This document shows, one piece after another, positions 891-61,775 of a stretch of 64,000 nt of DNA (positions within the stretch are counted from its first letter, which is position 1; the number at the start of each line of letters is the position of its first letter). The stretch spans positions 16,688,820 through 16,752,819 of the forward strand of contig NC_057746.1 of assembly GCF_004010195.1 (NCBI RefSeq), written 5' to 3'. The notes beneath the pieces are model-generated. The model worked only from the letters and a program-made list of their open reading frames with translations. It ran no database searches and was not told the DNA's origin. Both the position numbers and the translations under genes were made by a program. The stretch comes from Chiloscyllium plagiosum (taxonomy: Eukaryota).

Positions 891-1150
891 CATACCAAGA
901 TTTTTAGAAGCCTGTCATTCAAACCAGATTTCCATCAATGGATAGAGAGATTTAGATCCCATTTATCAAGTTCTCAGAAACATAACTGGAAATGATATCA
1001 CCGACCACAACATCCCAAGACACATAAATAGCAACCGGGAAAGAACACAAAAGCTTCAGTGGAGAACCATCGATGATGTTACCTAACATGGTGACGAAAC
1101 CTCTGAGAGAAAACTCACCAGCTGAACATGCAAACCCAAAACCGACATTT
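891..1150 (+). mobile_element. Penelope-like element 3' end, degenerate
   Basis: GIY-YIG C-terminal-like remnant followed by a decayed hammerhead-like motif (GATGATGTTACC...GGTGACGAAAC, ~1072-1100). Confidence 0.55.
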
Positions 1151-23200: not shown

Positions 23201-24389
23201 GCCAGTTGGGCGGACGCTGAAGTTTGCTGTCTTCCTAATTATTGAATTTATTGAAGAGTATGATATTATCATATTTGCAGCACAGATAGGAAACACATCC
23301 CATTATCATGAGATGCCATCTATTCTATTCTAATTACGCTATTAAACACATGGAAATTAATCATTTTTGGTACTGAAAATGGGCATCCAAAAGTGTGATA
23401 TCACATTGCTTCACTTCTATTTGGAGCTTCTGAAAATCTCGCATCTTTCTATGTAGTATTCTGTCGTGTGCATTTCACATAAGTATCATTTCCCTTTCTT
23501 TTAATTTTCTGTACTTGATATCGTGTTCAATTTACTTTACTCCCTTCTCTAATTTGCATTTATAACCTCCAAATCCTTTGGTCGATGTGCATTCGCTTTC
23601 ATTGTTCATTCAAGTCCTGGATTTCTCATCAGGATGAGCAGCTGAGGACGCACCAATGTGAATGCTTAAAATAGCTCTCCGAAACCTGAATGGAACAATG
23701 TTTTATTACACTGGAAGAAAGGGAAAATGAATATTTTATGAAAATTGCACTGAGTTGGAAATTTTGCAGGCGTGTGAATACTGCAGTAGGAAATAAGTAA
23801 TGCCTGGTATTAGTTGAGGCACGAATGTGTAAAAGGTAGGGGTAATTTAACGCTGAAGAATAATGGAAAATGGTGAGTTGGTGAAAGGAGAAGGGAGAAG
23901 GTATTGGGGAAATGGTAAAGTAGAAATGAAAATTGGAAAGTTACAGAGATGCTTAGACTTTTAAAAAATAGATTGGTGGCTTAGCGTGGGGAATGTGGAA
24001 GGAGTGAGTTAGTGAGAAGGGAATGGGGTCGAGGATGAAAGATAGAGTGAATATATTGGAGTAAAGGGGGATGTGGACGGTTTAGCCTAGTATGTAATGT
24101 ATTGTGTGTAATGGAAAGGGATTAGTGGAGAAGGGTGATGGCAATACAGTGTCTCAGTGCCGATGCTATAGGAAATTGTTTTGAATCAGACTGCATAGTG
24201 GACACATACTGGGGAAACTGACAGGTACAGTATTTTTTACACATGTTTTGCAAATGCAAATCTCATCAAACCAGGGGGTCATTCAAAATAGAAAGACAAC
24301 TCTTCGGTACAACGAGTCCACAACCTGTTATAAACTTAAACTGAAATAGTCTCACCGAACTGTGCATGGTCCATATCCTTCCAAACATT

Positions 24390-26115
24390 TCGTATTCATC
24401 AGGTTCGACGTTTGCTTGCTGAGGTGGTAGATTTATTCTTAGACGTTTTGCCACCATATTAGGTAACATAATCACTAAGCCTCTGATGAAGCGCTGGTAT
24501 TTTGTCCTGCTTGCTATTTGTGTGTCTTGGTCTGTTGTGGTAAGTGATATCACTTCTGTTTCTGAGAGTCTGGTAAATGGGGTCCAAATCTATATGTTTG
24601 TTAATGGAGTTCCAGTTTGAATGTCAGGCCTCCAAGAATTCCAGTACGTGTATTTGTTTAGCCTAGTTCAGGACGGATGTGTTTTCCCAATCGTATCTGC
24701 CCCTCTTCATCTGTATGTATGGATATGAGGGATAGATGATCATGACTTTTGGTGGCTAGTTGGGGCTCATGTATCCTGGTATCTAGTTTACTGCCTGTCA
24801 GTCCATGTAATGTCTGTTGCAGTCCTTGTAGAATAGTTTGCACATGATGTTATTTCTGCGGCTGTTGGTGTCAGGTTCTTTAAATTTATCAATAAGTGTT
24901 TCAGCGTGGTGGTAGGTTTTGGGGTTACAAGGGGCTGATGTCGTCTGATCGTCATCGGACGAGATATCATTTTTGTATGACAGGAGGGCTAGAATCTCTG
25001 GGTGTGTTGTATTTTGTCGTTTAGTCTGTACTGAGTTAATTGGTGGATTGTGTTCATCAGGGACCCGTTGTTCATGAATACATAGTATTGTTGTTTTTCC
25101 TCAGTGTCTCGTAGTTCCTGGGAGCTGATGTGTGTCATGACTCATTTAAATAATGTCTTCAGGCAGCCCCGTTTGTGGGTGTTGGGATAGTAGATTTTGT
25201 AGTTGAGATTCTGGTCAGTATGTGTGGCTTTCCTGTCGACGTAGGTCTGCAGCTCTCCACTGGCTTTATATTCTACTGTAGTGCCCAGGAAGTGGAGATG
25301 GTTGTTGTTCTCTTCCTCTTTGGTGACCTTTATACCGGTAAGGATGTGGGTTTCTTCTAATTTCTTGCGTTTCGTGATGACAAAGGTGTCACACATACAA
25401 CAGACCCATCGCTTGGGCTGGATCATTGAAAGAGCTGCGCATTCTAATCTCTGCATTACTGCAGAGAGGGCAGTGGAGGTCCACTCTCTAGATTCTTTTA
25501 AGAAGGAGTTGGATAGAGCTCTCAAAGATAGTGGAATCAAGGGTTATGGAGATAAGGCAGGAAAGGATACTGATTAGAAATGATCAGCCATGATTATATT
25601 GAATGGCGGTGCAGGCTCGAAGGGCTGAATGGCCTACTCCTGCACTATTGTCTATTGTCTATTATCTATTGCTTCTGCTAATAGTCCTAATATTGGTGAT
25701 CCCATAGACGTCCATTGATTTGCTTGTAGATCCTGTTGCTGAAGGCAGAGTGTGTTGTGAGGTACAGGTATCGTAGTTTCAGGATGATGTCCTCGCTGAT
25801 GGAGCTGTTGTTGTCAGGAGTTTCTGTCGTTGGTTCGTCTAACAGTGAAGTTAGTGTTTCTTCGGCTAGGGTGATGTTTCTTGATGTGAATAGGGCCTCA
25901 CTTCGAAGGAAACCATGACCTCGTCATCCTCTACCTTGGTATCTTTGGGGACGTTAAGGAATTCCTGGGTGCAGTGGATGGAATGACTTGAGTCTTCTAC
26001 GAGGTGTTTTCGTTTGTGTTGCAGATCCTCTGCTAGTCTGTATGTCGTTGAACCAGGAAGTAAGACTATGGGTCTGAGGGAGGCGCCTTGTTTACAAACC
26101 ATTGGTAATTCATAG
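24390..26115 (-). mobile_element. Penelope-like retroelement (RT plus GIY-YIG endonuclease), degenerate
   Basis: Minus-strand pieces LRPIV..PGSTTYRLA, DEVMVSFEV, KEEENNNHLHFLG, RKATHTDQNLNY, GSKLDTRIHE. Confidence 0.88.
25460..25670 (+). mobile_element. Short CR1 3' end inserted in the Penelope element
   Basis: AVEVHSLDSFKKELDRAL C-terminus, GAATGGCGGTGCAGGCTCGAAGGGCTGAATGGCCTACTCCTGC 3'UTR, (CTATTGT)n tail. Confidence 0.85.
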
Positions 26116-32199: not shown

Positions 32200-32760
32200 A
32201 GATTCTGGTGACCAAGAGTTCACCAACCTCTCCAAACACTGTCAGCAGCAACAAGGTTCCATCATACAACACTTTGTTGATGGTGAACAGGCCTTGGGGA
32301 ACCAGGAGGTGAACTACTTACTGCAGAATCCCCACTCTCTCACCAACTGTTAAAACCACAGTGTTAATACTGCTGATCGCATTCAGGTTCTGGTCAGTGG
32401 AATACAACTTAATATTGATGGTGGGAGATTCAGTGATGGTAAAACCTTTGAACGTCAAAGTGGTGAGGTGAATGAAAGATGTTAAGATTCGGTCTTGTTG
32501 AAGATGGTCATTGCCTGGTACTTGTTTGGCATGAATGTGATTTCCCACTTGCTAGCCCAATTTTGTATCATGTGTCTTGCTATGTAAATACATGGACTGA
32601 TTCAGTGTCTGAGGTCTCACACTGAAAAATATCCAACCATCAGTGAACATCTTGACTTCTGACCTAAGGATGTAGTGAAGGTTATTGATGAAGGAGTTGA
32701 AAATCTTTGGACCTAACACCGTTTCGTGAGGAACACCTGCAGTGCTGTCCTGTGGCTGAG
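32200..32760 (-). mobile_element. Degenerate L2/CR1-group LINE RT fragment
   Basis: TAGVPHETVLGPKIFNSFINNL..IRSEV.MFTD = decayed [14 protein letters not shown] motifs. Confidence 0.7.
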
Positions 32761-32909
32761 ATTGCTGCACCTGAACAGTTTCACTGGGGGCACATAATGC
32801 CAAGGAATTTGTTAGGGCCCACAGTCTTTGCTATACCCCTAGGCTTTAACTGTACACCAGGTCTGGCAGGATTTGGAGGCAGTCTCAGGATGCCCATTTC
32901 CACACGGAA

Positions 32910-33250
32910 TACTTTATTCATCGAATGTGGACATCATTGACTCGGCAGCAATTTATTGTCCAGCCCCATTTCTCCAGAGGATAATTATTGTGGGTCTGAA
33001 GTCACTTTGTAGGCCCAGACCAAATAAAGACAGGATACTTCCTTGCACAAAAGGACATGAATGAACTCGATGGTTTTACAGCTATACTCATTGGGTACAT
33101 GTCCATCATGAGACTTGCTTTCAGTTCCAGGTTGTTTTTTATTTGAATTCAAACCTCACTGTCTGCCATGAGGGGATGTGAACCCATGTCCCCAGATCAT
33201 TAGCTGAGGGGATTCCCAGCCCAGTGACATCACCGCAATCACATCATCTT
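32910..33250 (-). mobile_element. Deu-domain (SacSINE-like) SINE, duplicated at ~34570-34895; related copies ~39790-40110(-) and ~51250-51500(+)
   Basis: tRNA-like head on the minus strand (GGGTTCACATCCC), GAATTCAAA, CCTTTTGTGCAAGGAAG and GGTCTGGGCCTACA core segments. Confidence 0.6.
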
Positions 33251-33489
33251 CCCACACACCAAGGATCCATTTAAACATATCTCCTCTAAAGGTCTGTGAA
33301 TGTTGGGATAATTCAAAAGGAGCTCCATATCAGAGATGATTGCATTTTTGGAGACTGAGGTTTGTCTGATATTTTGGTGATTGAAGGAGATGAAACTGAA
33401 GTTAAAAATCAGCAATGATCTCATTGGGTGGTGTAGCAGCATGAGGAGCTGAATGGTCTCTGTCCCAAAAATGAATTGCAGCTCAGCTC

Positions 33490-33660
33490 ATTCTCCCAGC
33501 AACTAGAGATGAAAGTGGAAGTGTTTAGGTAATTGGAAATTCCCAATCGTGGGCGGAGTTATGGAACCTGGTTGTTGTCTATTCTGCGGAGTCTGCTGAC
33601 TCACTGAGTCTTTTTATTGTGATTGTATCGATAATAGTTTGGGACCAATCAGTGTGAAGG
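33490..33660 (+). promoter_or_regulatory. MHC class I promoter, copy A
   Basis: GAAAGTGGAAGT IRF/ETS-like (33511-33522), GGAAATTCCC NF-kB (33535-33544), GC box (33551), S-box-like GGAACCT (33563-33569), X2/AP-1 TGACTCA (33597-33603), mutated Y box ATTGT (33622-33626), CCAAT (33645-33649). Confidence 0.75.
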
Positions 33661-33837
33661 TGTCTCGGTGAAGAGGAACGGTAACAAGAACTAAAACAAA
33701 GTGCTGAAAAATCTGTCGGGAGAGATATTGAAGATCCTTCTTCAGAACAGTTTAATATCACTCTCGATTACAGCTCACAGACTGAGACAGTCCGGTGGAA
33801 AATAATCTCTCCTCCCAGACTGTCGACTGAAGTCACG

Positions 33838-34306
33838 ATGATTGGACTGATAGTGCTGGGACTTCTGTGGGGAGAGCTCTCTGCAGGTGAGGAATGGGAG
33901 GTGAGAGAGAGGCAGAGCCAGGCTGGGAACTGGGGCTTTAACCTTTGATCATGTTACCATCAGAATGGTTTATGGGGTAATATTTATCTGTTTCTTGTTT
34001 AAACGTCAGTGAATCCACTGTTTTAAATGGATTAAGTTCGTACGAGACTTAACCATAAGGCTAGAACAAAAGATCTGTAATTGCGAAATTCAAAAGATGT
34101 ATTGAACTATACAGGGTGAAATGTAAAATTGGCAGACGTTTTTTTTAAGTAAAAGGAAAAGAGAAAAAAGTTAACAATATCACGTGATGAAGCTGAAGTG
34201 AATTGTGAAATTCTCTCCAGTGCTGGAGAAAAGGTGAACAAAATGATTCATGATTCAGGAATTCATGCTCAGATTTTTCTGTGTTTCAGAAACTCACTCT
34301 CTCTGA
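33838..34306 (+). pseudogene. Truncated MHC class I copy: leader exon 33838-33886 and alpha1 stub 34290-34306 (MIGLIVLGLLWGELSA-ETHSL*)
   Basis: Leader exon with GT donor at 33887; acceptor TGTGTTTCAG at 34289 matches the true alpha1 acceptor at 41728; stop created at the duplication junction. Confidence 0.85.
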
Positions 34307-36302
34307 CCTAAGGATGTAGTGAAGATTATTGACAAATGATTTGAAAATCTTTGGAGCAAACATTGTTTCGTGAGGAACTCCTGCAGTGCTGTCCTGTGTC
34401 TGAGATTGCTGTACCTGAACAGGTTCACTGAGGGCACATAACGCCAAGGGATTTGTTAGGGCCCACAGTCTTTGCTGTATACCCCTAAACTTTAACTGTA
34501 CACCAGGTCTGGCAGGATTTGGATGCAGTCTCAGGAAGCCCATTTCCACACGGAATACTTTAATTTAATCATCGAATGCAGACATCATTGACTAGGCAGC
34601 ATTTATTGTCCAGCCCTATTTGTCCTGAGGATAATTGCTGTGGGCCTGGAGTCACATGTAGGCCCAGACCAGATAAAGACAGGAGATTTCCTTGCACAAA
34701 AGGACATGAATGAACTCGATGGTTTTACAGCTATCACCGTTGGGTACATGTCCATCACAAGACTAGCTTTCAGTTCCAGATTGGTTTGTTTATTGACCTC
34801 ACTGTCTGCCATGAGGGGATGTGCACCCATGTCCCTAGATCATTAGCTGTGGGGATTCTCAGCCCAGTGACATGACCACTATCTCACCATCTTCCCTCAC
34901 ACGAAGGATCCATCTAAACATATCTCCTCTAAAGGTCTGTGAATGTTGGGATAATTGCAAAAACACCTCCATAATCAGGGATAATTACAGACTAAGGTTT
35001 GACTCATATTTTGGCGATTGAAGGAGATGAAACATAGAACAATACAGTGCAGAACAGGCCCTTCGGTCCTTGATGCTGAGCCGACCTGTGACCTATTCTC
35101 AGCTCGTCCCCCTACACTATCCCATCATCATCCATGTGCTTATCTAATGCTTATTTAAATCTCCCTCATGTGGCTGAGTTAACTATGTTGGCAGGTAGGG
35201 CATTCCACACCCTTACCACTCTCTGCGTAAAGAACCTGTCTCTGATATCTGTCTTAAATCTATCACCCCTCAATTTGTAGTTATACCCCCTCATACAAGC
35301 TGACATCATCATCCTAGGAAAAGGACTTTCACTGTCTACCTTATATAATCCTCTGATAATCTTGTATGTCTCAATCAAATCCCCTTTTAGCCTTCTTCTT
35401 TCCAATGAGAACAGACCCAAGTCTCTCAGCCTTTCCCCATAAGACCTTCCCTCCAGACCAGGCAACATCCTGGTAAATCTCCTCTGCACTTTTTCCAATG
35501 CTTCCAAATCCTTCCCAAAATATGGCAACCAGAACTGTACACAATATTCCAAGGTGTGACTGCACTAGTGTTTTGTATAGTTGCAGCATGATATTGCGGT
35601 TCTGGAACTCAATCCCTCTGCCAATGAAACCTAACACACCGTATGCCTTCTTAACAGCACTATCAACCTAGGTGGCAACTTTCAGGGATCTATGTACATG
35701 GACTCCAAGATCCCTAGGGCACATCCACACTACTGTGAGAAACGAAGCTCACTCACATCAATAATTTCAATCCGAGACAAAATCTGAAGCAGTAGTATCG
35801 TTTATTTTGCTCTTGCAAGAGGGATGTGGTGTCAACTATTTGTAAGATAGTCACACACACACCCAGTTTAATGGGTACACAACATTTTAAACAATCCCTT
35901 CTCAGTTTCCTCCTCCCCCACTCATCTCATTGGCGTGTCCATATGTCCAATCCGCATTCTTCTTTCTCCTTCTCCCATTGCTCCTCCCCTGTTTACATCT
36001 CCCACTACTCACACTCCTGGCACCCCTTACCCTTGTTTACTTCTTACCCTATTTGGTCTTAGGTGCAGGTATCTGCTTGGCTGTTTTTACCACATAACTT
36101 AACTGTCTTACCACAACCCTCTAGTTTATAGTTAGCGTATATCCTCTCCTATTGCTAGATGTGTATGTGTTTTGCTAAAGTGACACTCTTCCCCCTTTCT
36201 AACCCACATCGAGCCTTATGGCCCGATTGTGGTTTTTTCTGCAGATGCACAAAAAATACTGCTCATAGCTTGCTTGTGTAAACTTATCTCAATCTACATC
36301 CC

Positions 36303-36639
36303 GGATGAACTCGGATTTCACCAGTTTCCTCATTTCCCCTCCCCCCAGCCTGTCTCAGTCAAATCCATCAAATTCAGCACCGCCTTCCTAACCTGCAATC
36401 TTCTTCCCGACCTCTCCGCCCCCACCCCAGTCTGACCTATCACCCTCACCTTGACCTCTTTCCACCTATCACATTTCCGACACCCCTCCCCCAAGTCCCT
36501 CCTCCCTATCTTTTATCTTAGCCTGCTGGACCAACTTTCCTCATTCCTGAAGAAGGGCTAATGCCCGAAACGTCGATTCTCCTGTTCCCTAGATGCTGCC
36601 TGACCTGCTGCGCTTTTCCAGCAACACATTTCCATCCTT
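36303..36639 (+). mobile_element. Penelope-like element 3' terminal fragment nested in the LTR
   Basis: 12-bp TSD AATCTACATCCC (36291-36302, 36640-36651); C-rich tract; terminal repeat shared with the hairpin elements. Confidence 0.85.
36541..36580 (+). ncRNA. Candidate minimal type I hammerhead ribozyme
   Basis: CTGAAGA (36547-53), A, stem II GGGC-TAAT-GCCC, GAAA, palindromic ACGT mini stem III, GTC cleavage triplet (C36574). Confidence 0.65.
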
Positions 36640-36929
36640 AATCTACATCCCCCCTCCTATCCAGCCCTACAACCCTTGCAGACAACAACCTCCATAATCT
36701 TTTCCTTACACTACCAAGAATCTTTCCACTGACCCAATATTCTGCCTTCCTGTTATTCTTCCCAAAGTGCATCACCTCACATTTAGCTGCATTGAACTCC
36801 ATTTGCCATTTTTCAGCCCAACTCTGCAGTTTATCCAAGTCCCCCTGCAACCTGTAACATTCTTCCAAGCTGACCACTATTCCATCGACTTTAGTGTCAT
36901 CTGCAAATTTATTAATCCATCCACCTATA

Positions 36930-38109: not shown

Positions 38110-41100
38110 GTGAGGAATGGGGGTGTGACAGAGGGGTAGAGCCAAACTGGGAACTGGCCCATTAACCTTTGATCATGTTACCATCAGAATGGTTTATGGG
38201 GTACTTTTTTTCTGATTTCATGTCTAAACGTCAGTGAATCCACAGTTTAAATTATTTAGGTTAGTACGAGACTTAACCATAAGGCGAGAACAAAAAATCT
38301 TCATTTGCAAGATTTATTGAATTTCCAAAGGGAGAAAAGTAAAAATGTAGAATTGATAGTTTTTTCATGTGAAAGAAAGAAAAAATTGCGTTGAGAGTAA
38401 AACGTTAACGACGTCACATGATGAAGTGAATTGTGAAATTTCCTCCGTTCCCCAGCGCTGGGTAACAGATGGACAAAAGGCCTTCTTGAAAACTTCACCT
38501 TATATGATTAACTCTAGTTCATCATCTCAAATCAACCTAACTGTGGTCCACACATTGACTAACTTCTCTGTTTAATTATGATTGGTTACTGACACAGGAA
38601 ACTTTCCCAGGTTTGGGAACATTGTTTCCCATTCTAAAAGATGAAAGACTTCATCTAAACTTGTTTAAGAACTATAACCTGGTGTTCTGTGACTTTTAGC
38701 TAAAGTTGTTTAATATATCATTGCAACTCCATGACACTGTAACTCTTCTGCTAAAAATTCTGTGTCATATGGTCATGTTCCACAACCACCTTTCAACACT
38801 CCTCCAAGGACATGCAGGTCCTAGGCCACCTCCAACGACAAACCCTTACCACCCAACACCTGGAGGAAGAACACCACATTTTCTGCCTTGGGACCCTCGA
38901 ACCACACGGGATCAATGTGGATTTCACCAGTTTCCTCACTTTCTCTTCCACCCCACCCCCCCCACTCCCAGTCCCAAGCCTCCAACTGGGCACCACCCTC
39001 TTGACCAGTTAATCTTCCTTTCCACTATCTGCTCGACCCTACTCCCCGACCGGTCACCTTTACTCCCACCTTCATCTACCTACCACAGTTCCAGCTACTG
39101 TCCCACCAGGCTCACCCCTCTCCAATTTATTTCTCAGCCCCCCCCCCCCCCCCTCCCTCGGCCATTATCTTAATTCCTGATGAAGAGCTTGTGTGCAAAA
39201 CATTAATTCTCCTGTTTCTCAAATGCTTCCAGACCTACTGTGCTTTTCCAGCACCATGCTCTCGATTACTATGCTTGTGTCAGAAGGCTGTTTGTAATAA
39301 GTTACCAGTGTGAGAAATTGAGAGCCACTGATGAAACATGACATCTCTGACAAGGCATGGATGGCGCTGGGAGTTGACCTCATCTCTCTCACTCTGTCTC
39401 TCTGGAACTGAACATTTTCATCACTGTAGATGAACTAATCTTCTGTCTATAAGGTGGTGGACCATCTGACTGACTGCTCAGATTGTAGAATGTCTGTTTT
39501 TTTTTATGTAAGCAGTGTATCCATTACTACATTTTCAACATTTTGATGAACAAAATGGCAGAGTGAGGTGGTGAGTGAGATATCCAAGCTGCTTCAGAGA
39601 GGATTGTGAAATTGAACACCACACCAGAGTTCATCAAAATGAAAAGCTGAGCTGGAAATCAAAATTGCTAAAGGAATGAGAGACAAACTGAGCAAATCCA
39701 GTGGAGAAACAGATCCACTGAAGGCATGGTGAGTCATGCTCTTTCCAAACTGCTCTTCCACTGGCAAACCCAATCAAAGTGTTTTTAACTTCATTCATGG
39801 AAAAGTGGGAGTCACTGGCTGGGCCAGAATTTATTACCAATCCCTAATTTTTAAGAGACAGCCCCATTGCTGTGTGTCTACACTCACGTCCAAGCCAGGC
39901 CATGTAGGGATGGCAGTTTCATTTAGGAAAAGGACTCTAATGAATCAGATGCCCTTTTCCAGGGAATTGACATGATTTCATGTTTCAGACTCCTAATTCC
40001 AGAAAACTATTGAATTCAGATTCCATCAACTGCCTTTGCAAGATTTGAACCAAGGTCCCTGGAACCTTACCTGATTATTACTCCAGTGATGATACCACTC
40101 GGTCATCCCCTCCCTGTGAACACAGATACACCATTGCCAATCACAGTGCATACACACACACTGGAGTAACTGTTCTTTCACAGCAGCTGGCTGTGAAAGA
40201 TGGGAACAGAACCTGCACAGGCCACAAATCAACCATCAGATCCCAAGGTCCACCAAACCCTAGCATTGGAAATGGAACATAAGTGAAACCAGAAGTGACA
40301 TTGGAACAACTCTCCCAGGAGAAACAGCATAATCCAGAACAGCCAACAATGAAGAACGGCACAATTTAAGACTGTAAACTATTCATGTGCAGGGACTGAC
40401 ATGAATCTTGAACTGCTGTTGTATGAAGTCATGTGTCCATTATGGTTAATCTGGATAACTCGCAATGTGAGCAATAATCTAGGCAATTCCTTTATCTGCT
40501 GCCCTTGTCCTTCTGGATTGACATGATCATAGATTTGGAAGGTGCTGTTTTCAGGAGCACATTCCAAAACCTGCCTGAAAGTTTGAGTCTCAACCCCTGC
40601 TTTGGACGGATCTGGAATTCACTTGGAAAGCAAACAGTTCCTCTGTCTTCAAACATGGTGTGAAGCTGCCATCATAGCTTGCTGCTGTGGGGCAATTTAA
40701 GGCAGAAGCTGCAATAAAATGATTGACTTATAGAATACAGCAACAACATGGCTGAAGGAAGAATTCAGCTAAAGAAGCAGGGTTACTATAGGACATCCTT
40801 GCAGTAATTAGTTGTCTCAGCAGAAGCAGGATAACACACAACTGATCATGTCAAAAGCTTTCTCTCCACTTATGCTGCCAGACCTACTGAGTTTCTCTAG
40901 CTGTTTCTGTTTTCATTTCAGATAGAGCCTATGATATCTGGTAGACCATGAACAGCTACAGTGGTTATATAACAAAGCAGATAAGGTAAGGCCTTGATGA
41001 CTGCTGAAATGAAACATTTTGCTGGAAAGCAGGCCTCCGGTCCCATATCTGAAACTTGGTCACTTCTGTTTATTAGCAAGAAGTCTTTCCAAGCAGAGCA

Positions 41101-42882
41101 TGTGACTATGGCCCTGATCACCTGGTCACGTGATGTGGGGCCCCTTAACTGATTGGATAATAGCTTTTGAAATGTATTAAATAACTATTTAATCTGTAAG
41201 ATTTCCTTTGTTCAGTGGACAAGTATCAGAACTGTCCCAGAGACTTGCTCCCTGCTGATGAAATAATAAACTCTGATAACTGAAGCAGACCTTGGGTATC
41301 ATGTGATCCTCATAGTCATTCTGTCCCTTCACTGCCATCTCCCAACTTGGAAAGAACTCTTCAAATCCGTGGCTCTAGCCCCTTGGTCGCTGACCTTCAG
41401 GTAACCTGAGGAGAGCACACACAAATGTTGGTGGAAAGGGTCAACAAGTGGCTGATGAGATTTAACGTGAACAATGCAGAGATATACATTTTGGAAGGAA
41501 AAACCTGGAAAGACAAAATAAAGAGTGAAGCTCTAAATCAGGAATAAGGGACAGAGAGTCCAGCAGTTATAAAAGTAAAAATCATAGAATGTGGATGGGC
41601 AGGTTCAGACGATGGGATCCTGGGCTTTATAAATACAGGTATAGTGTGTGAAGAGAGCTCTCTCTCAGCGTTCAGTTAGAGTGATGGGTGTTTAGGGATT
41701 CATGTACTGATTTCTTTTTGTGTTTCAGACACTCACTCTCTCCGGTATTTTGTCACTGGTATGACTCCGATTCCTGGTTTCCCAGAGTTTGTGATTGTTG
41801 GTTATGTGGATGGGGTCCAGTTTGTTATGTACAACAGCAATTGGAAGGGGTTGATTGCCCGGAAGCAGTGGATGGTGGATAGTGAAGGACCAAAGGCCTG
41901 GAACCGGAAACTATTGCTTGCTCAGGAGCAAGAAGACATTGTCAGACGCAATATTCCAAGATTTATGACACGGACCAACCAGACAGGAGGTGAGTGCTCA
42001 CCGTCCCACAGCATGACATCTTTCTGTGCGTTTGGGGAGTATGGGTGGGAATGGGAGAAATTAGGAGTGAATCTGAGTTCCAGAGACTGACTGGCTGTGG
42101 GAATGGTTGGAGGGGACACCAACTGTCTCTGTCTCTGATCAGCAACTTGTGTTTCTGATTGACAGGGATCCACATTTACCAGATGATGACTGGCTGTGAC
42201 CTGAGGGATAATGGGACTGTAAGTGGGTTCACTCTCAGAGGATGGGATGGACAAGATTTGATCAGCTTCGATAAGGATCACATGGTGTGGGTGACCCCAG
42301 TCCACTGGGCGGAAAGCATCAAAAACAGGAAGGACCAGGATGTGGTGTCTAACCATCTATGGAAGCATTTTCTGGAGGTGGAGTGCATTGAATGGCTGAG
42401 GAAATGCCTGGAGTACGGACAGAGGGAACTGAGAGTCGGTGAGGGAGTGAGAGTTGTTGTGGTGAATGATGTCTGGGCTTTTCTCTCTCTGCGTTCCTGA
42501 ACTGATTCTTCTTCCTCTTCCCCTCTCCCTCAGTTGCCCCGATCGTGTCCGTTACCCGTCTGGGTGATTTTAACTGGCTGGTCTGTCTTGTCACTGGGTT
42601 TTACCGACAAGCCATCGAGGTGACTCTATGGAGGGATGGAGTGTTGATCGATGAGCCCCTGTCCACCGGGATCTTGCCCAATCACGACAGGACCTATCAG
42701 ATCCGGAAATGGATAGAGTTTGATCCAGAGGACCAGGCCGAGTATTCCTGTCAGGTGGAGCACAGCGGATTGGAGGAGAAGCTGGTGGTGATTTATGGTA
42801 AGACTCATTCTCACTGTTAGAGAGGAACCAGGATCACAAGAGAGAGAGGACCAGCTGAGCTGCTTCAGCAGGACGCTCCAGG

Positions 42883-42918
<36 letters not shown>

Positions 42919-45900
42919 AAGTTGATACGAACTGTCAGTGTATCATAGTGCTCACATCAATTGTACAGGACAGTAATCAAGGCAGTGAATCAGGGAAACT
43001 ACAGTAGGGTGTCACCCAGTGTATCCTGGTGTGTAACACTACCCCAGCATCTTAATGTCCAGGAACATTCAGGATTAAAGAATACTACCAGCTCCTGCAA
43101 GTTCCCCTCCAAGCTACTCGCCATCCTGACTTGGAAAAACATTGTGGGGCCATCTACAGCACATGAGCTGTATTGGTTCAAGAAGGCAGCTCACCACCAC
43201 CTTCTGTAGAGCAACTACTAGGGAATGACTGTAAATACTGGCCCAACTAGTCACAACCATATCCCTATGATTAAAAATGAAAAACAGATCCAGAGTTATT
43301 TTGCTTTGAGACAGTTCAGTGAATTCAGGGATAGTAATGTCCGACAGTACCCATATATTCTGAGACTATTGCAGCAACCAGTGTATCCTCGAATTATAGC
43401 CCAGTGTATTTAACATTTGTTTCTCAATGATCTTTTTTATCTAACTCAATGTAACGATGAATAGTCAGCATGAATTTTGAGGGAGAATATTGTGTTTGAC
43501 CAACTCCATTGAATATTTTTGAAGAGACAGTATATTCCTGTTAGGCTGGTAGGTGTAGGGAATGCTGGATGACTGGAGAAATTGAGGTTTAGGTTAAGAA
43601 AAAGAAGGAAGCATATGTCCAGTATGAACAGGAGAGATCGTGTGAATCCTTACACGAGAGGCTGTAGGAGTCATCTGGATTAAAGTGGTGCTGGAAAAGC
43701 ACAGCAGGTCAGGCAGCATCTGAGGAGCAGGAAAATTGACATATTGGGCAAAAGCACTTCAGGGCTTTGCTTTTACCCGAAACGTTGATTTTCCTGCTCC
43801 TCAGATGCTTACTGACCTGCTGTGCTTTTCCAGCACCACTCTAATCTAGACTCTGATTTCCAGCATCCGCAGTCCTCACTTTTGCCTATAAAGGCTGTAG
43901 GAGTATACTTAAGAGGGAAATCAAGAGGGCAAAAAGAGGACATGAGATAGCTTTGGCAAATAGGGTTAAGGAGAATCCAAAGGGTTTTTATAAATACATT
44001 AAGCATAAAAGGGTAACTTGAGAGGGAATAGGGCTCCTCAAAGATCAGCAAGGGAGCCTTTGTGTGGAGCCGCAGGAGATGGGGGAGATATTAAATGCGT
44101 CAGTGTTTACTATGTGGAAGATATAGAATGTGGGGAAATAGATGGTGACATTTTGAAAAATGTCTATGTTACAGAGGAGGTGGTGCTGGATGTCTTGAAA
44201 TGAATAATAGGTGGATAAATTCCCAGGACCTGATCAGGTGTACCCTAGAACTCTGTGAGAAGTTAGGGAAGTGATCATTGGACCCCTTGCTGAGATATTT
44301 GTATCATCAATAGTCACGGGGAGGTGCTGGAAGACTGAAGGCTGGCTAACATGGTGCCACTATTTAAGAAATGTGGTAAGGAAATGCCAGGGAACTATAG
44401 ACCAGTTAATCTGACATTAGTGGTGGGTAAGTTGTTGGAGGGAATCCTGATGGACAGGACTTACTTGTATTTGGAAAGGCAAGGACCGATTAGGGATAGT
44501 CAGCATGGCTTTGTGTGTAGGAACACATATCTCACAAACTTGATAGTTTTTTTGAAGAAGTAACACAGAGGATTAGGGCTGTTATACATTTAATGGTAAG
44601 TCTCTGGGGAATGTTGCTGAACAAAGAGACCTTGGAAAGGAAGTTTATGACCTTGATAGGAGAGTCACAGGTAGATAGGATAGTGAAGAAGGCATTTGGT
44701 TTGCTTTCCTTTATTGGTCAGAGCATTGAGTACAGGAGTTGGGAGGTCATGTTGTGACCATACAGGACATTGGCTAGGCCACTTTTGGAATATTGTAGGC
44801 AATTCTGGTCTCCTCATATAGGAAGGATGTTGTTGCGAAACTTTGTAGGGTTCAGAAAAGATTAACAAGGACATTGCCATGGTTGAAGGATTTGAGCTGT
44901 AGGGAGAGGCTGAATAGGCTTGGGCTGTTTTCCCCAGAGCTTCAGAGGCGGAGGGGTGACCTTATAGAGGTTTATAAGATCATAAGTGGCATGGATAGGA
45001 TAAGTAGACAAGATTTGTACTTGGGTGTGGTTGAGTCCAGAAGTAGAGGGCATAGGTTTATGGTAATAGGGGAAAGATATAAAAAGGACCTAAAGGGCAA
45101 CTTTTTTTCACACAGGGTGGTGCATGTATGGAATGAGCTGCCAGAGGAAGTGATGAAGGCTGTTACAATTGCAGCATTTAAAAGGCATCTTGATGGATAT
45201 TTGAATCGGAAGGGTCTAGAGGGATATGGGCCAAGTGCTGGCAAATGAGGCTGGATTATGTTGCGATATCTGGTCAGCACGGACGAGTTGGACTGAAGGG
45301 TCTCTTTCCATGCTGTACATCTCTATGACTGTAGGTAACAGGGTTCACAGTGGTAATGTTGTAGATGTACTCTTGAAGGCTTTAAAAGGCCTTTGATCAG
45401 GTACCCCCATAATAAAAACATTTAGAGAATGTGGAGTCAGCTAAAATGGATTGTTAACTAGTTTGCAGACAGGAAAGAGATTGGGAATAAGGTTTATTTA
45501 GTCAGTGTCAGAATGATGGAAGTGATGTTCTGCAAGGAAACATTGCCATTCACAGTTTACAATATTGATTTGGACTTTGAAATTATGGAATCACATGGAA
45601 GTCTCTTTAGCCCATCATGCCCTGACTGTCTCTCTGAGCATTACCACTCAGTGCTATTCTCCTGCCTTCTCCCCATCACCCTGAATATGGTTTTATTTAA
45701 ATGGAATTTTAGAATTTAAATTATTATATACCCCGGCACCAAGCAGTCCAGAGAACAAGACAGGAATCCCAGGTAGTCCCAAGGGGGAGAGAGATATTTC
45801 GAGATATTCTAACAAAGAGCAGAGATGAGCTTTAGACAATCCTGTGTGATAGGAGGCAGGAGATCCAAAATCCCAACATGAGGAGCCTGATGCACGAGAC

Positions 45901-48900
45901 AGCCAGGTTGAGTCTACTACATCTCATCAGGCAGTGATTCTGGTGATCAAAAACAGTTATTTCCAAATTGGGGGTAGTCTGTATTCAGGAAGACAGCAGC
46001 AAGTTACAGAAAGGCATTAACAAACCTTCAAACTGAACAAATGATTGGTAAGTGAAGTAGAGGAACAAAACAATCTCAGAGAAAAAACACCCAATTACTG
46101 AATGTTGTGCACAGATTAGAGTCCTACAGCACGGACACAGGCCCTTTGGCTGAAACTGGTCCGTGCCAATCAAAATATTCATCACCACTACCCCCATTTC
46201 CCTTCACTTGACCCATATCCTTCTAAGTTGAAACTTTATTGCTGGAACAGCACAGCAGGTCAGGCAGCATCCAGGGAACAGGAGATTCGACGTTTCGGGC
46301 ACAGGCCCTTCTTCAGGAGGGCCTGTGCCCGAAACGTCGAATCTCCTGTACCCTGGATGCTGCCTAACCTGCTGTGCTGTTCCAGCAATAAAGTTTCAAC
46401 TTTGATCTCCAGCATCTGCAGACCTCACTTTCTCCCCATATCCTTCTAAACCTTTCCCTGTCCATGTATTTGTCCAAATGCCTTTTACACGGTGGTAATG
46501 TACCACCCTCTGCGAAAACATTGTCCCTCAGCTTCCCTTTTATTCTTTCCCCTGCAACCTTAAACTGATGCCCTGTAGCCTTTGATTCCCCAACCCTATT
46601 AAAGCGACTGAGTGCATTCACCTTATCCATGCCTCTAGTGATCTTATACGTTTCTGTAAGATCCTCCCCCACCTTCATTTCCTACACTCTAAAGAAAAAA
46701 GTCCTAGTTTGCCCAACTTCTCCTTCTAACTTAGTCCCTTGTGTCTTGGCAACTGCCTTGTAAATTTCTTCTGCACGCTTTCCAGTTTAATAACATCCTT
46801 CCTATTAGCAAAGTGACCAAAACCACAATACTGCAAGTGCAGCCTCACCAATGTTCTGTACCACTGCAATATAACTTCCCAACTTCTATACTCAATGCCC
46901 TGACTGATGAAGGCTGATGTGCCAAAAGCTGCCTTCAATGTCCTGTCTACTTGTGACTCTACTTTCAGAGAACCATGCAACTGAACTCCAAGGTCCCTCT
47001 GTTCCACTACATTCCTTAATGCACTACCATTCACCATGAAACTCGTGCTTTGATTTGAGTTTCCAAAATGAAGACCTCGCATGTATCTGCATTAAACTCC
47101 ATTTGCCATTTCTCTGCTCATTTCCCCAGCTGATCAAGGACCTGCTGCAATTTCTGATCACCTTCCTCGCTGTATTTGATACTGCCTATTTCAGTATCAT
47201 CTGCAAACTTACTAACCATGCCTTGTACATTCTCATCCAAATCGTTGATATAGATAACAAACAGCAATGGGCCCAGCACCAATCCACTGATTCTTGTGGC
47301 ACTCCAATGGTCACAGGCCTCCAGTCTGACAAGCATCCTTCCGTTATTACCTGCTACTTTCTAACAAATGTGTATTCAATTTGCCAGCTCCCCCTGGATT
47401 CCATTCAATCTAACCTTCAGAGCAGCCTACCATGAGGAATCTTAGCAAAGGCCTTACTGAAATCCATATACTGCCCTGCCCTCATCAACCTTCCCGGTCA
47501 CTTTATCAAAGAACTATAACAAATTTGTGAGGCATGATCTCCCATTCACACAGTCATGCTGAGTATTCCTAATCAAACTGTCTTTCCAAATGCATATAAT
47601 ATCTTATCTCAGAATCTTCTCAAGTAACTTACCTACCACAGATGTTCGGCTGACTGGTCTATCGTTCCCAGGATTTTCTTTGCAGCCCGCATAACCTTCA
47701 CTACTGTCCATAACTTCCATGACCTCACCCCGTGGATAACAATTAGAAAGGGCATTTTTTTATGAACAACCTGAGGATAGGCTTTAATTTTTAGAGGAGA
47801 TTTAGCATATGCCACCTCACCTTCAATTCTACCTTGAAGTTTGGTTAGACCACATATTGAGAACTGCAGACAGTTCCGGTCACCATGTGATATAAAGGAT
47901 ATTGAGGCACTGGAGAGAGTGCTGAGAAGATTTACAATGTCAATATCAGAAACGTGTGAGTGTATGTATCAGGAAAGGATTGAGAGGCTTGATGTCTTCT
48001 CTCTTGAATGATGGAGCCTGAATAGAGATCTTTAAAATGATGAATCATTTTGAAAGAGTGGGTGCAGAGAGAATGTTTGTGGAAGGGCACAACTAGGGAC
48101 TATCAACACAAGGCAGTCACCAAATATTCCGCATGGGATTGCAGAGAAGCTTTGACAGTCGGACCATGAGGAGAATGTGAATCTTGCTGCTGAAGGGAGT
48201 GAGATTGTCAAGATATATTTAGAGGGAAATTAGAAAGGAATCAGGAGTGATGGTGATAGATATAAATGAGAAAGGAATGTGGAGCTTCAAGAGACTAAAT
48301 ACAGGTGTATGTTGATTGGACCAAATGGGTTCAGTGTGTGCCTTTTATTTTCTTCTTTCTCTCTCTTCATGCCTCACTCGGCTCTCTGTCTCTCTGTGAC
48401 AGACCCAAAGTCTCATGCCCAGGTTCCTGTTCCTATTGGGATTGTATTCGGAGTCCTCTGGATCATCTCTCTCTCTGTTGTGGCTGTCACCATTTACAAG
48501 AAGAAAGGTTGGAGGTTTTGAGAAAATGGCAGCTCCTCACGGTTGGGGGTTTCAGGGAATTGGAAATGATCCCAGCGATGAAGAGCTTGTTATATGATGA
48601 GCTGTTGAGGACTCTGCGTGCGTACTGGATGGAGTTGAAAATGTTGAGAGCAAATCTCATGAAAAGTATACATTACTGAGAGGAGTGGATGTGGAGAAGA
48701 TGTAGGAGACACGAGGACCCAAGGGAACAGCCTCCGTGTGACGGGATGACCTTTTAGAACTGAGGAGGAATTTCCTCAGTGGTGACTCTGTGGAACCCAT
48801 TGCTGCAGAAGGTTGTGGAGGCCAAGACATTGAGTGTCTTTAAGACAGAGATAGGTTCTTGATTGGTAAACGGCTCAAGGTTACAGTGAGAAGGCAGGAG

Positions 48901-52310: not shown

Positions 52311-52945
52311 ACTCCACACACACACACACACACCCCTCTTACATACTCTCACACTCACGCAGGCCCTCTCTCATACACACATAACTCCCCCCATATTCAC
52401 ATCCACACATTTGCCCTCTCACAGGTTTATACTCTGTCACAATCACGCACACACTGCCAAGCACATGCACATGATTGAATGGCGGAGTGGACTCGATAGA
52501 CCGAATGTCCTTACGTCTGCTCCTATGTCTTATGGTCTTATGTAAATACAAACTCACGGGCACTCTCTCTCACACATGCACACACACAAGGCTATCAGGT
52601 GAATTTGCATTTGCAGAATTGTTTTTGCAGATACGTTGTGTACTTTTGGAGCAAAATATAATCTGCAGGCAGTCAATCCATATCACCTTAAGTTATCTCG
52701 AGAATGTGACTTAAAAGAAGTTCTGATATTTACATATTGATGAACCAAAACCTACAATATATTGTTTCATTTGTATGATGTTGTGATCTTTTGCTATAAA
52801 TTCTGTGTCTTGTCCCACAGCTACCTGACGAAGGAGCAGCGCTCCAAAAGGTAGTGCTTCCAAATAAATGTGCAGGTCTATAACCTGGTGTTGTGTGATT
52901 TTTAACTTTGTCCACCCCAGTCCAATGCCAGCACCTCCACATCAT
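52310..52945 (+). mobile_element. Penelope-like 3' end with (CA)-rich tract
   Basis: Reverse-complement similar to 54510-55540; CTGACGAAGGAGCAGCGCTCCAAAAG decayed hammerhead at ~52825-52850. Confidence 0.75.
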
Positions 52946-54509: not shown

Positions 54510-55297
54510 GTTAAAAATCACACAACACCATATTATAGTCCAACAGGTTTATTTGGAAGTACTAGCTTTCACTACGCAGCTTTTTCGTCAGATGGCTGGT
54601 AGGGCAGGGTTACAAGACATAGAATTTATAGTTGCAAATGTGTGGCTGGAAAAGCACAGCAGGTCAGGCAGCATCCAAGGAACAGGAGAATCGACGTTTC
54701 GGGCATGAGTCCTTCTTCAGGAATCTTCATTGATTCCTGAAGAAGGGTTCATGCACGAAACGTCGATTCTCCTGTTCCTTGGATGCTGCCTGACCTGCTG
54801 TGCTTTTCCAGCAATACATTTTCAGCTCTGATCTCCAGCATCTGCAGTCCTCACTTTGTCCTCATAGAATTTATAGTGTAAGGCCATAGCATCATATACC
54901 TGATATGATATATTGAACAATTTGCTGTTAAATCTTTCATCTTTTAGGATGGGTTGCAAGTTTCAATTCATTAATACACAAATCCCAGAACTTCTTACAA
55001 CTCACATTCCATAGATAACTTAAGATTTTGTAAAGAGAGGTGACATTTCAGTTCAGACAATGCACTAAAGGCGTGAGGTTAGAATCTGTCTGTATTCCAA
55101 TCTTGAGTCAGACAGGTTCTATTTCCAAAGTAGGTATTCAGAAAATATCACATGGATTGACTACCTGCATTGACTGACTGCATATTAAGTGTTTTTTAAC
55201 AAAATAAAATACATCTGCAAATAGAATTCTGCAAATGAAAATTCACCCCATAGACTTTCATGTGTGTGTGTGTGTGTGCACGTCAGGGAGAAAGAGA

Positions 55298-55333
<36 letters not shown>

Positions 55334-57360
55334 AGTAGATTTTGTGCATGAGTGAGTTGGAGTATAAGCCTGTGAGAGGGTATGGTCATGGAAGAGAGTG
55401 TGGTGGATGTATGTTTGTGTGTCTGAGAGAGAGCATGTGTATGAGAGAGGATCTTTGAGAGTATGTGAGTGTGTAAGTGTGTGTGTGTGTATTATGCTTG
55501 CATGGCAGTGTTTGTGTGCGTGAGAGTGTATAGTGTAGTGAAGTTACTTGTCATATGACATGAACTTTAAGTCATGGTTGAGGCCTCTTGGGTATCAAAG
55601 TTGGCTATCAGCCTCTGCTCGGCCATTCTGCATTGCTATGTATCCTGAAGTCCGCCTTGCAGAACAAGCACCCAAATTTCTGAGGCCGAATGTCCCTGAC
55701 TGCTGAAGTGTTCCCCGACTGGGAAGAAGCATCCCTCGTTGACAATTGTTGTGCGATGTCAATTCATCCATTGTCAAAGAATTTGCTTGTCCCGTCAATG
55801 TACTGTTTCTCGAGTCACCCTTGCCTGCAACACATGAGATAGACAACGTTAGACGATTCACATGAGTACCTGTCGTGTATATGGTGAGTGGGCTCCTCAC
55901 GTGTATTGGTGGTATCTATGGCGACATTCTAATTGCCATGACAGAGTTGTATAGTGTTGTGGTCAATGTTGTCCTGAAGGCTGGGCAGTTTGCTGCGAAC
56001 AATGTTCTGTTTAAGGTCTGGTTGTTGTTTACAGGTGAGAAGTGGAGGGGTAGGCAAGGTCTTGCCGAAGTGTGCATACTCATCGAGAATGTGTTGCATC
56101 CTGCAAAGAATGTGGCATAGTTTCTCTGCATCCGGGAAATATGGACAATGAATGATATCCTGTGTCTGTCACCTGAGGAGATCATTACGGCTTCTTGCTG
56201 TGACACGTCGGAACTGGCGATTGATGAGCTGAGCATCGTATCCGTTTGTTATGTGGGCGTCCTTCAGCACCTATAGGTATCCGTCACATTCCTCTTCATC
56301 TGAACAGATTTTGTGTATGCATAGGGCTTGCCTATAGGGGATGGCTATTTTAATATTTCCAGGAGAAGCTAAAGAAATGCAGCATTGTGAGGTTATCCGT
56401 GAGTTTGTGGTAGAGTGAAGTGTCCATCATTGATGGAGGAGCATATGTCCAAAAATGAGACAGATACTAAAGAGTAGTCCATGGTAAGTCTGATGGTGGG
56501 ATGAAACTTGTTGATATCACTTTGTAGTCGTTTCCGTGACTCCTCGCCAGAGGAAACAAAATGTCATCAATGTATCCCGTGTATAATTCTGGACAAAGGC
56601 CCTGTGCAACAAAAGAAGTTTATTCAAACTTGTGCATGAAAGTTTGGTCCCCATGGCTACTCCGTGTGTATGAATGAAGAACTAGTGGCCAAAGGTGACA
56701 ACGTTGCTGTCGAGGATAAGGCGGATGAGTTGTAGGATGGTGCTCTGAGATTGAAGTTTAAGGTATTAGGTACTGAGGCTGTTGCCGAGATGTTGTCATC
56801 ATGACGGATGCTGGTGTACAGTGCCAAACCGTCCATTTTGATGAAGAATGTTCCCAATTCGACTAGTCAATGGGTGCTGTGTTTCTTGAAGAAATCTGTA
56901 ATGTCATGACAGAGCCTGGGGGTCCCCTGTACAATGGGTTTCAAGGTGCCCTCGACATAGCCAGAGAGATTCTCAAACAAGAATATGTTGCCTGAAAGGA
57001 TAGGATGTCCAGGTGTGTTGGCTTTGTGTATCTTCGGAAGACAATAGCAGTCCCCTATGCGAGAAGTGGGATGAGAGTGTGCACTGAACTCTAAGGGATT
57101 GGATCAAAAGTCTTGATCAGTCTGTTTGGTTCATAAGTGTGTTCTTTGGTCGGATCGATGGGTAGTTACCTGTAGTGCTCCTGGTTGTTCAGCTCATGGT
57201 TCACTTCCTTGCAGTAGTGATTTTTTAACTGACTGACGGTGGCTCCTCCTTTATCTGCTGGTTTCATGACACTGTTGCGTTTGGTTTTGAGAGCATAGAT
57301 GGTATTGCATTCAGATCATGTGCTGCTTTGCATTACCTGTGGGTACGGCTGATGAATCTT
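54510..57360 (-). mobile_element. Penelope-like retroelement (RT plus GIY-YIG, GT-microsatellite 3' region), degenerate
   Basis: Minus-strand remnants PKIHKANTPGHPI, ENLSGYVEGTLKP, MDGLALYTSIRHDD, PTIRLTMDYS; (GT)n 55261-55540; terminal repeat shared with 52800-52945. Confidence 0.85.
54633..54862 (+). mobile_element. Penelope-derived hairpin mini-element
   Basis: ~185-nt palindrome with hammerhead-like cores on both strands; 15-bp TSD CATAGAATTTATAGT (54618-54632, 54863-54877). Confidence 0.9.
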
Positions 57361-57800: not shown

Positions 57801-57980
57801 CAGCAGGTCAGGCAGCATCCAAGGAACAAGAGAATCAACGTTTCGGGCATAAACCCTTCTTCAGGCTTATGCCCAAAACGTCGATTCTCCTGTTCCTTGG
57901 ATGCTGCCTGACCTGCTGCGCTTTTCCAGCAACACATTTTCAGCTCTGATCTCCAGCATCTGCAGCCCTCACTTTCTCCT
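57801..57980 (+). mobile_element. Penelope-derived hairpin mini-element
   Basis: Inverted arms plus the same tail; 12-bp TSD CCAC(C/A)GGCAGAT (57789-57800, 57981-57992). Confidence 0.85.
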
Positions 57981-58199
57981 CCACAGGCAGATTAGCAAGC
58001 TTGGCATCTGACTTTGTGGTAAAGCACGGTGATGCAGAATTTATGATAACTCCTTTCCAGCTTCTGTCTGTGTGCATTTATACAGTGGAAAACGAATATT
58101 GTTTGGGGTGTAAGTACAAAATCGATGTAATAGGTAAATAACTCAGAAATACACTTATTTGTTAGTGATAAATTATCATTTTTTATGAACTTTACTTTG

Positions 58200-61049: not shown

Positions 61050-61775
61050 GACAAAACCTGCCTACACACCTCCGCCCTCACCTCTATTCAAGCCTCGAAA
61101 AAATCATTCCTCGTCTGTCAGCCATTCATGTGCATTTCCTCTAAACTGATTTATTGCAATCATTACTCTCCATGTGATCTCCTCTACATCGCAGAGACTG
61201 AATGCAAACTCGGGAACCAGTTCAGGGAACATTTATAATTTGTACGCTCTAATCAACCCCACCTTCCAATTGCCATCCATTTTAACTCGCACTCCCATTC
61301 CCGAACGACATGTCCATCCAGGGCTTCTTCCGCCATCATCACGCAAACTGGAAGAAGAACATCTCATCTTCCACCTTGGGAGCTTGAAATCATATGGCCT
61401 TAACATACAATTCACCAGCTTCCAAATATCCTGCCCTATCCCACCTACCCATCCCAGCACCCCGACATCATCCTAGACTAGGCCTTGCTTTTGCACCCCG
61501 TCCCCTACTTGCCCACCTATCTGTTTCACCCTACCCACTGACCAATTAATGCCACCTCCTCCCCGCATCTAACTGTCACCATCCCACCCACCTTTCCCCA
61601 GCCCCAACTACCTTGTTTATTTCGCAGTTCAGTTACCTTCTCCCAGTTCTGTAAGTTTCTGACCTGAAACTTCGATGGGCCTTCTCCTCTCATGCTGCTT
61701 TACCTGATGTGCTTTTCCAGTTCCACTCTTTATCCACTCTGACTGTCAAGCGTCTGTAGTTATCACTATCTCTGA
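61050..61775 (+). mobile_element. Penelope-like GIY-YIG and 3' end, degenerate
   Basis: LLYIAETECKLGNQFREHL (YIGET motif), RKLEEEHLIFHLGSL..GLNIQF, C-rich tract. Confidence 0.85.

Follow-up and report, generated by a model that had tools for sequence, protein, structure and literature searches.

A hammerhead motif in the terminal repeats of a young Penelope-like element of the shark Chiloscyllium plagiosum: carrier element and putative transcript start

A short sequence at 36547–36574 of the window analyzed here (64,000 nucleotides of the Chiloscyllium plagiosum genome; NCBI RefSeq assembly GCF_004010195.1, contig NC_057746.1, positions 16,688,820 to 16,752,819, forward strand) is an intact core of a minimal type I hammerhead ribozyme. 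The locus raises the questions of which element carries this motif, where copies of that element begin, and whether the ribozyme cuts. In our best explanation, the motif is the terminal-repeat hammerhead of a recently amplified Penelope-like element (PLE), likely situated at the start of a capped RNA, and the copy at 36547 is itself likely an inert passenger.

The hammerhead core and its carrier element

The core consists of CTGAAGA (36547–36553), an unpaired A (A36554), a stem II of GGGC (36555–36558) and GCCC (36563–36566) around a TAAT loop, GAAA (36567–36570), and finally C, G, T and C (36571–36574). These are exactly the letters claimed in the first-pass annotation, which had read an intact core with a predicted cut after C36574. 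The motif has the features of the minimal hammerheads of PLEs: the CUGANGA, GAAA and UH elements with helix II; an extra base between positions 9 and 10.1 (A36554) together with G10.1–C11.1, a pair that is G-C in 237 of 281 copies and G-U in 28; a palindrome at 15.1–16.1 (ACGU here, AGCU in a second family) that would permit helix III in a dimer; and a location in a pseudo-LTR. Stem I, formed by AUUC (36543–36546) and GAUU (36575–36578), has three pairs and one U·U.

A loose core pattern occurs 16 times in the 64-kb window against a shuffle mean of 8.74; 16 or more were found in 3 of 100 shuffles, a modest enrichment. The exact core pattern has 118,554 matches in the 3.56-Gb genome (59,329 + 59,225), compared with 32 (12 + 20) for a reversed control pattern. 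The full descriptor gave 231 matches in 1.82 Mb of loci, which were partly selected for the motif, versus 3 in one shuffle.

An Rfam scan of the window returned 10 matches at E≤10, none of them at the hammerhead sites. A canonical type I hammerhead, with a 6-bp helix I, a loop-loop contact and an Rfam match, was considered and rejected, stem I being at most 4 bp. The monomer of the 36547 copy does not fold into the hammerhead (z = +0.68), its predicted dimer minimum is other than the double hammerhead, and the copy is solo, without a tandem partner. Elsewhere in the window, at 51566–51662 on the minus strand, a weak Hammerhead_3 match (21.7 bits, E 5.3, cut-off 48.5) is probably due to chance.

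The proposal that the motif is a Penelope-like terminal-repeat hammerhead holds: it lies in the pseudo-LTR of an EN+ PLE (Table 1). The limits of this insertion follow copies that are 99–100% identical over query positions 4–337, and its 3′ end is common to tail-less copies. The family is young, with all 40 scored matches (of 1,749 candidates) 99–100% identical. Longer copies reach into the GIY-YIG domain; no copy was found whose pseudo-LTR continues into the RT ORF. One copy, L046, contains in order an inverted repeat, a repeat with the core, an N-filled interior, the endonuclease and a second repeat, with its cores 3,044 bp apart. It displays the direct pseudo-LTRs and inverted 5′ repeat of EN+ PLEs, the full ORF being unseen there as the interior reads N, and its 5′ repeat carries 142 nt upstream of the putative transcript start (+1).

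RT and, at the C terminus, a GIY-YIG domain are found in one ORF in P0001, an open frame of 649 aa from a related subfamily that is without its N terminus. It scores 35.3 bits for RVT_1 (cut-off 29.6) and 21.5 for GIY-YIG (cut-off 22.6); other copies score 31.9 and 22.8. The linker between RT and endonuclease in P0001 is C-x4-C-x2-C, which conforms to CX2-5CxxC. Such a linker defines the Neptune clade, and Nematis elements have the same one (PMC8557442). Judged by its sequence, the carrier is an EN+ PLE whose linker is of the Neptune type, which makes it a candidate member of that clade. A shark origin of the element is supported, because the best named relatives of P0001 are from Chiloscyllium and Rhincodon.

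Positions in the element are denoted q, the window position minus 36534, where q9 is A36543, q13 is C3 and q41 is the first base past the cut. The 3′ ends of copies form two groups about 35–40 nt apart, 119 of 243 at q101–109 and 100 at q138–150, positions that best-of-many extension inflates by a few bases. The optional tail of 30–40 bp seen in EN+ PLEs is present, and suggests two internal priming sites, as in the anole element, where priming is internal and both strands are extended (PMC11167929). In-frame tandem repeats of 64–74 bp in the endonuclease region of L046 and another copy, L050, suggest repeated template jumps during reverse transcription.

Table 1. Features of the window related to the hammerhead motif and its carriers.
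Feature	Position	Strand	Remarks
Minimal type I hammerhead core	36547..36574	+	4-bp stem II; palindromic ACGU replacing helix III
5′-truncated Penelope-like (Neptune-type) insertion, 334 bp	36303..36636	+	GIY-YIG ORF end, 3′ UTR and pseudo-LTR, without the optional tail
Target-site duplication, left copy, 15 bp (1 mismatch)	36288..36302	+	sequence
Target-site duplication, right copy	36637..36651	+	sequence
Endonuclease ORF, C-terminal residues	36305..36358	+	78% identical to P0001 622–639
T-rich TATA-like box	36511..36516	+	−32 to −27; 72–95% conserved per column in 39 long copies; putative promoter element
Initiator-like TCA(+1)TTCC	36541..36547	+	putative start at A36543; also the 5′ strand of stem I
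Likely first ORF codons (MLPDLLRFSSNTF)	36593..36636	+	open through the tail in tailed copies; putative start
Decayed older-subfamily pseudo-LTR end, 36547 family	39168..39256	+	sequence
Decayed head-to-head palindromic insertion, 36547 family	43674..43850	.	in MHC α3-TM intron
Head-to-head palindromic insertion	46222..46437	.	minus-strand intact core 46316–46289; tail on plus arm; in MHC α3-TM intron
Head-to-head palindromic insertion	54630..54863	.	near-intact cores on both strands; within 3′ UTR of another PLE
Head-to-head palindromic insertion	57801..57981	.	minus-strand core 57864–57837
Decayed divergent PLE	54564..57270	−	22–43% identity to P0001; ends in second-family hammerhead 54591 (GGAGC stem, AGCU)
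Decayed second-family hammerhead	52825..52852	+	upstream matches 3′ UTR of the 57.3–54.6 kb element
Decayed third-family hammerhead end (GUUACC stem)	989..1135	+	inverted homology to end of decayed PLE at 24.4–25.5 kb

Other copies in the window, their families and a neighboring immune gene

Several further cores had been listed in the first-pass annotation. The minus-strand core at 46316–46289 is intact as described, with a CTGT loop, and the near-intact cores on both strands lie at 54720–54693 (minus) and 54737–54764 (plus), each with one stem II mismatch. A core is also present at 57864–57837 (minus), with one G·U in stem II and a GUU triplet. The copies near 1072, 39177 and 52825 are decayed, as stated; that at 39177, however, had been assigned to a different family and instead belongs to an older subfamily of the 36547 family. 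Cores that had been overlooked include a second-family core at 54591 (minus), the decayed palindrome at 43674–43850, and further decayed copies near 13150, 37970 and 61662.

Remnants of other PLEs are also present. The decayed minus-strand element at 54564–57270 has a CA-rich 3′ UTR, and a young palindromic stub of another PLE family is inserted just before its hammerhead. A second decayed PLE (24266–25543, minus) ends in a hammerhead of the GUUACC-stem family, and the C terminus of its RT is presumably Poseidon-type. Decayed endonuclease fragments at 61056–61449 and 38797–38937 (both plus strand, 52–60% identity to P0001) each lie upstream of a decayed core (61662 and 39177, respectively). 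A direct duplication, with a spacing of about 1.64 kb and 90–92% identity, occupies 32658–34961.

Four stem types were distinguished: GGGC/GCCC with ACGU, GGAGC/GCUCC with AGCU, GUUACC/GGUGAC, and GGGUC/GACCC. The second (GGAGC/GCUCC) has 23,796 exact matches in the genome, with none for the control. The third adjoins PLE ORF remnants in one copy (L055) and at 24.4–25.5 kb, while a PLE ORF was found beside the fourth, GGGUC/GACCC, in none of six cases. At least three families with different stems, each seen beside a PLE ORF remnant, bear out the claim that several shark families carry the motif.

Covariation had been proposed as a check on the structure. It is found between families, as two-sided changes, but not within the main family, where the GGGC/GCCC stem is invariant. 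The observation that loops vary while the stem is kept is correct, but it does not amount to covariation, since the stem is identical. In 11 copies representing the four stem types, 7 of 10 pairs are changed on both sides, and the covariation score was reached in none of 500 shuffles; this score is inflated by kinship, 2 of the 11 rows are out of register by one column, and the structure was read from the same sequences. Changes within the main family are mostly CpG-type decay, and within-family covariation was rejected, with A-U at the second pair of stem II in only 2 of 281 copies.

The description of copies inside and upstream of an immune gene is accurate. The gene (41730–48505, plus) encodes an MHC class I heavy chain, with exons α1–α3 at 41.7–42.8 kb and 6lup_A (E 5e-25) as its best solved-structure match. 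Copies at 43.7 and 46.3 kb lie in the α3-TM intron, and those at 36.5 and 39.2 kb lie upstream of α1. RNA contigs show the α1-α2, α2-α3 and α3-TM splices, with α3 joined to an exon at 48402–48505. Regulation of the gene by these copies, through pre-mRNA cutting or promoter supply, is highly improbable. The α3-TM intron does hold two insertions, but the intact core among them is antisense, in a fold-back that would pair the core away, and spliced α3-TM RNA exists. The copy at 36.5 kb lies on the strand of the gene, about 5 kb before the α1 exon, and keeps its putative promoter; however, no joint between a repeat and an MHC exon is found among the 15 of 34 joints shown. The density of copies near the gene matches that in random regions (101 motif matches per 537 kb, about one per 5 kb), so the MHC-proximal copies need no explanation. 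An effect of the copies on the MHC gene is not supported. The window also holds an intronless ORF of 494 aa for a rhodopsin-family receptor (15784–17268, plus; 7tm_1, E 4e-60), which resembles a muscarinic acetylcholine receptor.

Where copies begin and whether the ribozyme cuts

An unbiased sample of 55 random regions (537 kb) yielded 41 copies with >78% identity, 39 of them scorable. Ten of the 39 are long, ten have their 5′ ends at q8–13, ten at q14–36, and two at q40–42. In a larger set of 174 junctions, which is enriched for intact cores, 55 ends fall at q7–12, 15 at q39–45 (three of these at q41) and 7 at q−20 to q4. The 5′ ends thus cluster 4 nt upstream of the core, at the initiator-like A36543. 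Across the genome, 37,787 intact cores mismatch the element at three fixed upstream positions, a set of mostly short stubs with a few indel or other-subfamily copies, and 3,841 copies selected by a different filter are broken within q37–49. TCATTCC is called initiator-like for its resemblance to the initiator consensus, and the second family has its putative +1 A 32 nt after TATAAA. Raw RNA reads diverge just before q9 at many loci (88 loose ends). Originating from many genomic copies and from either strand, these reads carried neither a start nor a cut signal; in the one run with coverage no pile-up of molecule starts or ends was seen, and 93% of the reads entered unrelated flanks. A-to-G differences in the reads were set aside as indistinguishable from subfamily differences.

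The base before q9 shows an excess of G. Among the 100 matches listed for starts after a foreign A or C (of 2,532; counted by eye and including a few duplicated loci), G stands there 63 times, A 19 times and T 18 times, and a machine count on 30 loci gave G 20, A 7 and T 3; the background frequency of G is 0.199. As a control, the position one base further in has G in 10 of 100, or in 10 of 51 once palindrome joints are removed. For solo copies that have a duplication, the G is present in 5 of 8 cases at the start versus 2 of 21 elsewhere, a few of these 29 duplications being internal repeats rather than target duplications. Among 100 listed second-family copies, 39 keep the +1 octamer, which is preceded by C in 19, G in 18, A in one and T in one (by eye); G accounts for 18 of the 20 non-C bases, six of these 18 being palindrome centers where the base is ambiguous. 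Reverse transcriptases copy an RNA cap as a C. We read the excess G as a cap copied into a terminal C. The G is seldom provably untemplated, because it lies inside the duplicated target in three of five solo cases and outside in two. A search for literature on a cap or untemplated G with Penelope or LINE-1 found nothing relevant.

The pile-up and the G might instead reflect target choice (an endonuclease preference for G-AT(T), with ATT microhomology) or a terminal transferase that adds a non-templated C, in place of a capped end. The position of the G within the duplication in those three solo cases, where the target usually continues to match the element start, is compatible with this account, as is the preference of the anole PLE for ATT targets, which matches the +1 ATT of the element (PMC11167929). 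In vitro, the R2 RT also places non-templated G and T at its 5′ junctions, with no cap invoked (PMC13000458). We nevertheless consider it unlikely. The ends drop sharply upstream of q7 (the 7 of 174 over 25 positions, against 35 in q13–22), a cliff that calls for a template end there; in the second family this G precedes ACAA, a sequence that lacks ATT; and the start sites of both families lie about 31 nt past a TATA-like box. It is also unlikely that the motif persists for promoter function or protein binding and no longer cleaves, its resemblance to a hammerhead being vestigial. The motif does span +1 to +36 of the putative transcript, a zone of downstream promoter elements; in D. virilis the promoter lies internally and has no TATA box (PMC2377424), catalytic mutants leave insertion in vitro unimpaired (PMC11167929), and Naiad PLEs thrive without the motif (PMC8557442). 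However, the catalytic nucleotides are fixed, two-sided changes occur in stems I and II from one family to another, and the palindrome of helix III shifts from ACGU to AGCU, a pattern that argues for selection on RNA structure. The anole motif, moreover, cleaves, with C3/G8 rescue (PMC11167929).

Frequent cutting in vivo would leave a visible share of copies as cDNAs of the 3′ product starting at G36575. Starts at the cut position do exceed those of its neighbors (472 at q41 versus 115 at q40 and 237 at q42), and the TCAGGA|TT joint is common, which would also be expected from a cut template annealing through stem I homology. Yet among 30 q41 loci, 20 are palindrome joints with GA microhomology, five are small indels and five have foreign flanks. 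Counted by eye, foreign-flank joints number about 100–135 at the cut (q41), 100–115 at q42 and, lowered by CpG decay, about 50 at q40; the class at the cut is no larger than that at q42. After correction for the pattern filter, about 1,400 starts fall at the cut position, compared with >118,000 cores. Frequent cutting therefore seems improbable. Any cleavage signal would be weak, in at most about 1% of copies, although cut templates would yield the same palindrome joints through stem I homology. Activity of the minimal hammerheads in vitro is low and dimer-only (PMC4209133), and in the anole element cleavage is protein-assisted and uncut RNA is the main substrate (PMC11167929). By analogy, the low share of cut-position starts agrees with both.

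The preferred reading, a terminal-repeat hammerhead near the start of a capped RNA, suggests the following course. Pol II would start at A36543, and stem I would be limited to at most four pairs because transcription starts there. RT would prime internally at the tail, either 94 or about 130 nt past the start. If it primes on the 5′ repeat copy, synthesis would run off the capped end and leave a stub that often bears a cap-derived G; when both nicked strands are extended, head-to-head palindromes would arise, and priming on the 3′ repeat would give longer copies such as 36303–36636. Cutting by the ribozyme would be rare, occurring in a dimer paired through ACGU or assisted by the element protein, and the cut would release a capped leader of 32 nt. 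A double cut in a tandem transcript would yield unit-length RNA that could, speculatively, circularize and so recover the stretch before +1. Such a circle would account for the 142 nt that precede +1 in L046, as would template switching or insertion beside an existing repeat.

More tentatively, the stubs may be regarded as a fossil 5′ RACE experiment, in which tens of thousands of copies from two unrelated families record a capped start 4–8 nt before the hammerhead, the hammerhead being a 5′-terminal switch and not a flank trimmer. If this is true, uncut RNA would be capped and translated and would yield abortive stubs, whereas a rare, protein-assisted double cut would decap and circularize the unit, the sole route by which a full-length copy regains the sequence before +1. 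Such a switch would explain why stem I is short and why PLEs have a partial-tandem structure.

Relation to known elements and biological meaning

Minimal hammerheads have been described in the pseudo-LTRs of metazoan PLEs, including fish Xena, Poseidon and Neptune elements (Cervera and De la Pena 2014, PMC4209133). The shark motif is a further case of this class and is ordinary for Penelope-like elements. It has in common with that set a type I core, the extra base 9/10.1, G10.1–C11.1, a palindrome at 15.2–16.2 and a short helix I, as well as the occurrence of several families per genome, mostly solo copies and some opposite-strand pairs. The shark counts (118,554 + 23,796) are higher than the roughly 4,000 in coelacanth and 9,000 in Xenopus reported there, although the descriptors differ. 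Stem II is 4–6 bp in the shark copies, unlike that set, and the available text of the 2014 report names no cartilaginous fish and gives the motif no position with respect to the transcription start.

The Poseidon element PAc of Anolis (Frangieh et al. 2024, PMC11167929) likewise has two internal priming sites that define a tail, extension of both strands, a hammerhead beside the ORF start, and uncut RNA as the main template. The shark family differs in its Neptune-type linker and in its likely ATG, 19 nt past the cut, which in PAc lies at stem II; the available text maps no transcription start for PAc. Neptune-clade EN+ PLEs (Craig et al. 2021, PMC8557442; Arkhipova et al. 2013, PMC3846280) share with the shark element the C-terminal GIY-YIG domain, the CX2-5CxxC linker, partial tandems, an inverted 5′ repeat, a tail of 30–40 bp and target duplications, and TATA and Inr-like sequences were noted in a rotifer pLTR. 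Unlike those elements, most shark insertions are ORF-less stubs of 94–130 bp, and about 40% of copies (16 of 41 in the random regions) are in head-to-head pairs.

Type I hammerheads from PLE pseudo-LTRs also occur in non-LTR retrozymes, which were present in one sampled chondrichthyan genome (bioRxiv 10.64898/2026.07.22.740005, as far as available). Retrozymes are tandem arrays of hammerhead-bearing units, whereas the 36547 copy stands alone as a truncated PLE end flanked by a duplication of its own. The nearest relative on the same strand lies 2.6 kb away and is decayed, and a retrozyme was rejected for this copy. No published shark example was found in a search of mostly open-access papers.

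What is added here is a cluster of copy starts lying 4 nt ahead of the core, with G in excess just before them, a pattern that fits run-off copies of a capped, uncut RNA. The head-to-head copies are fold-backs of 70–130 bp; if transcribed, they would place dsRNA in host introns, a possible source of editing or small RNAs. The >140,000 intact cores provide testable coordinates: a start at A36543, a cut after C36574, and priming at about +94 and +130. The role of the hammerhead within PLEs is a question that these coordinates sharpen into defined experiments.
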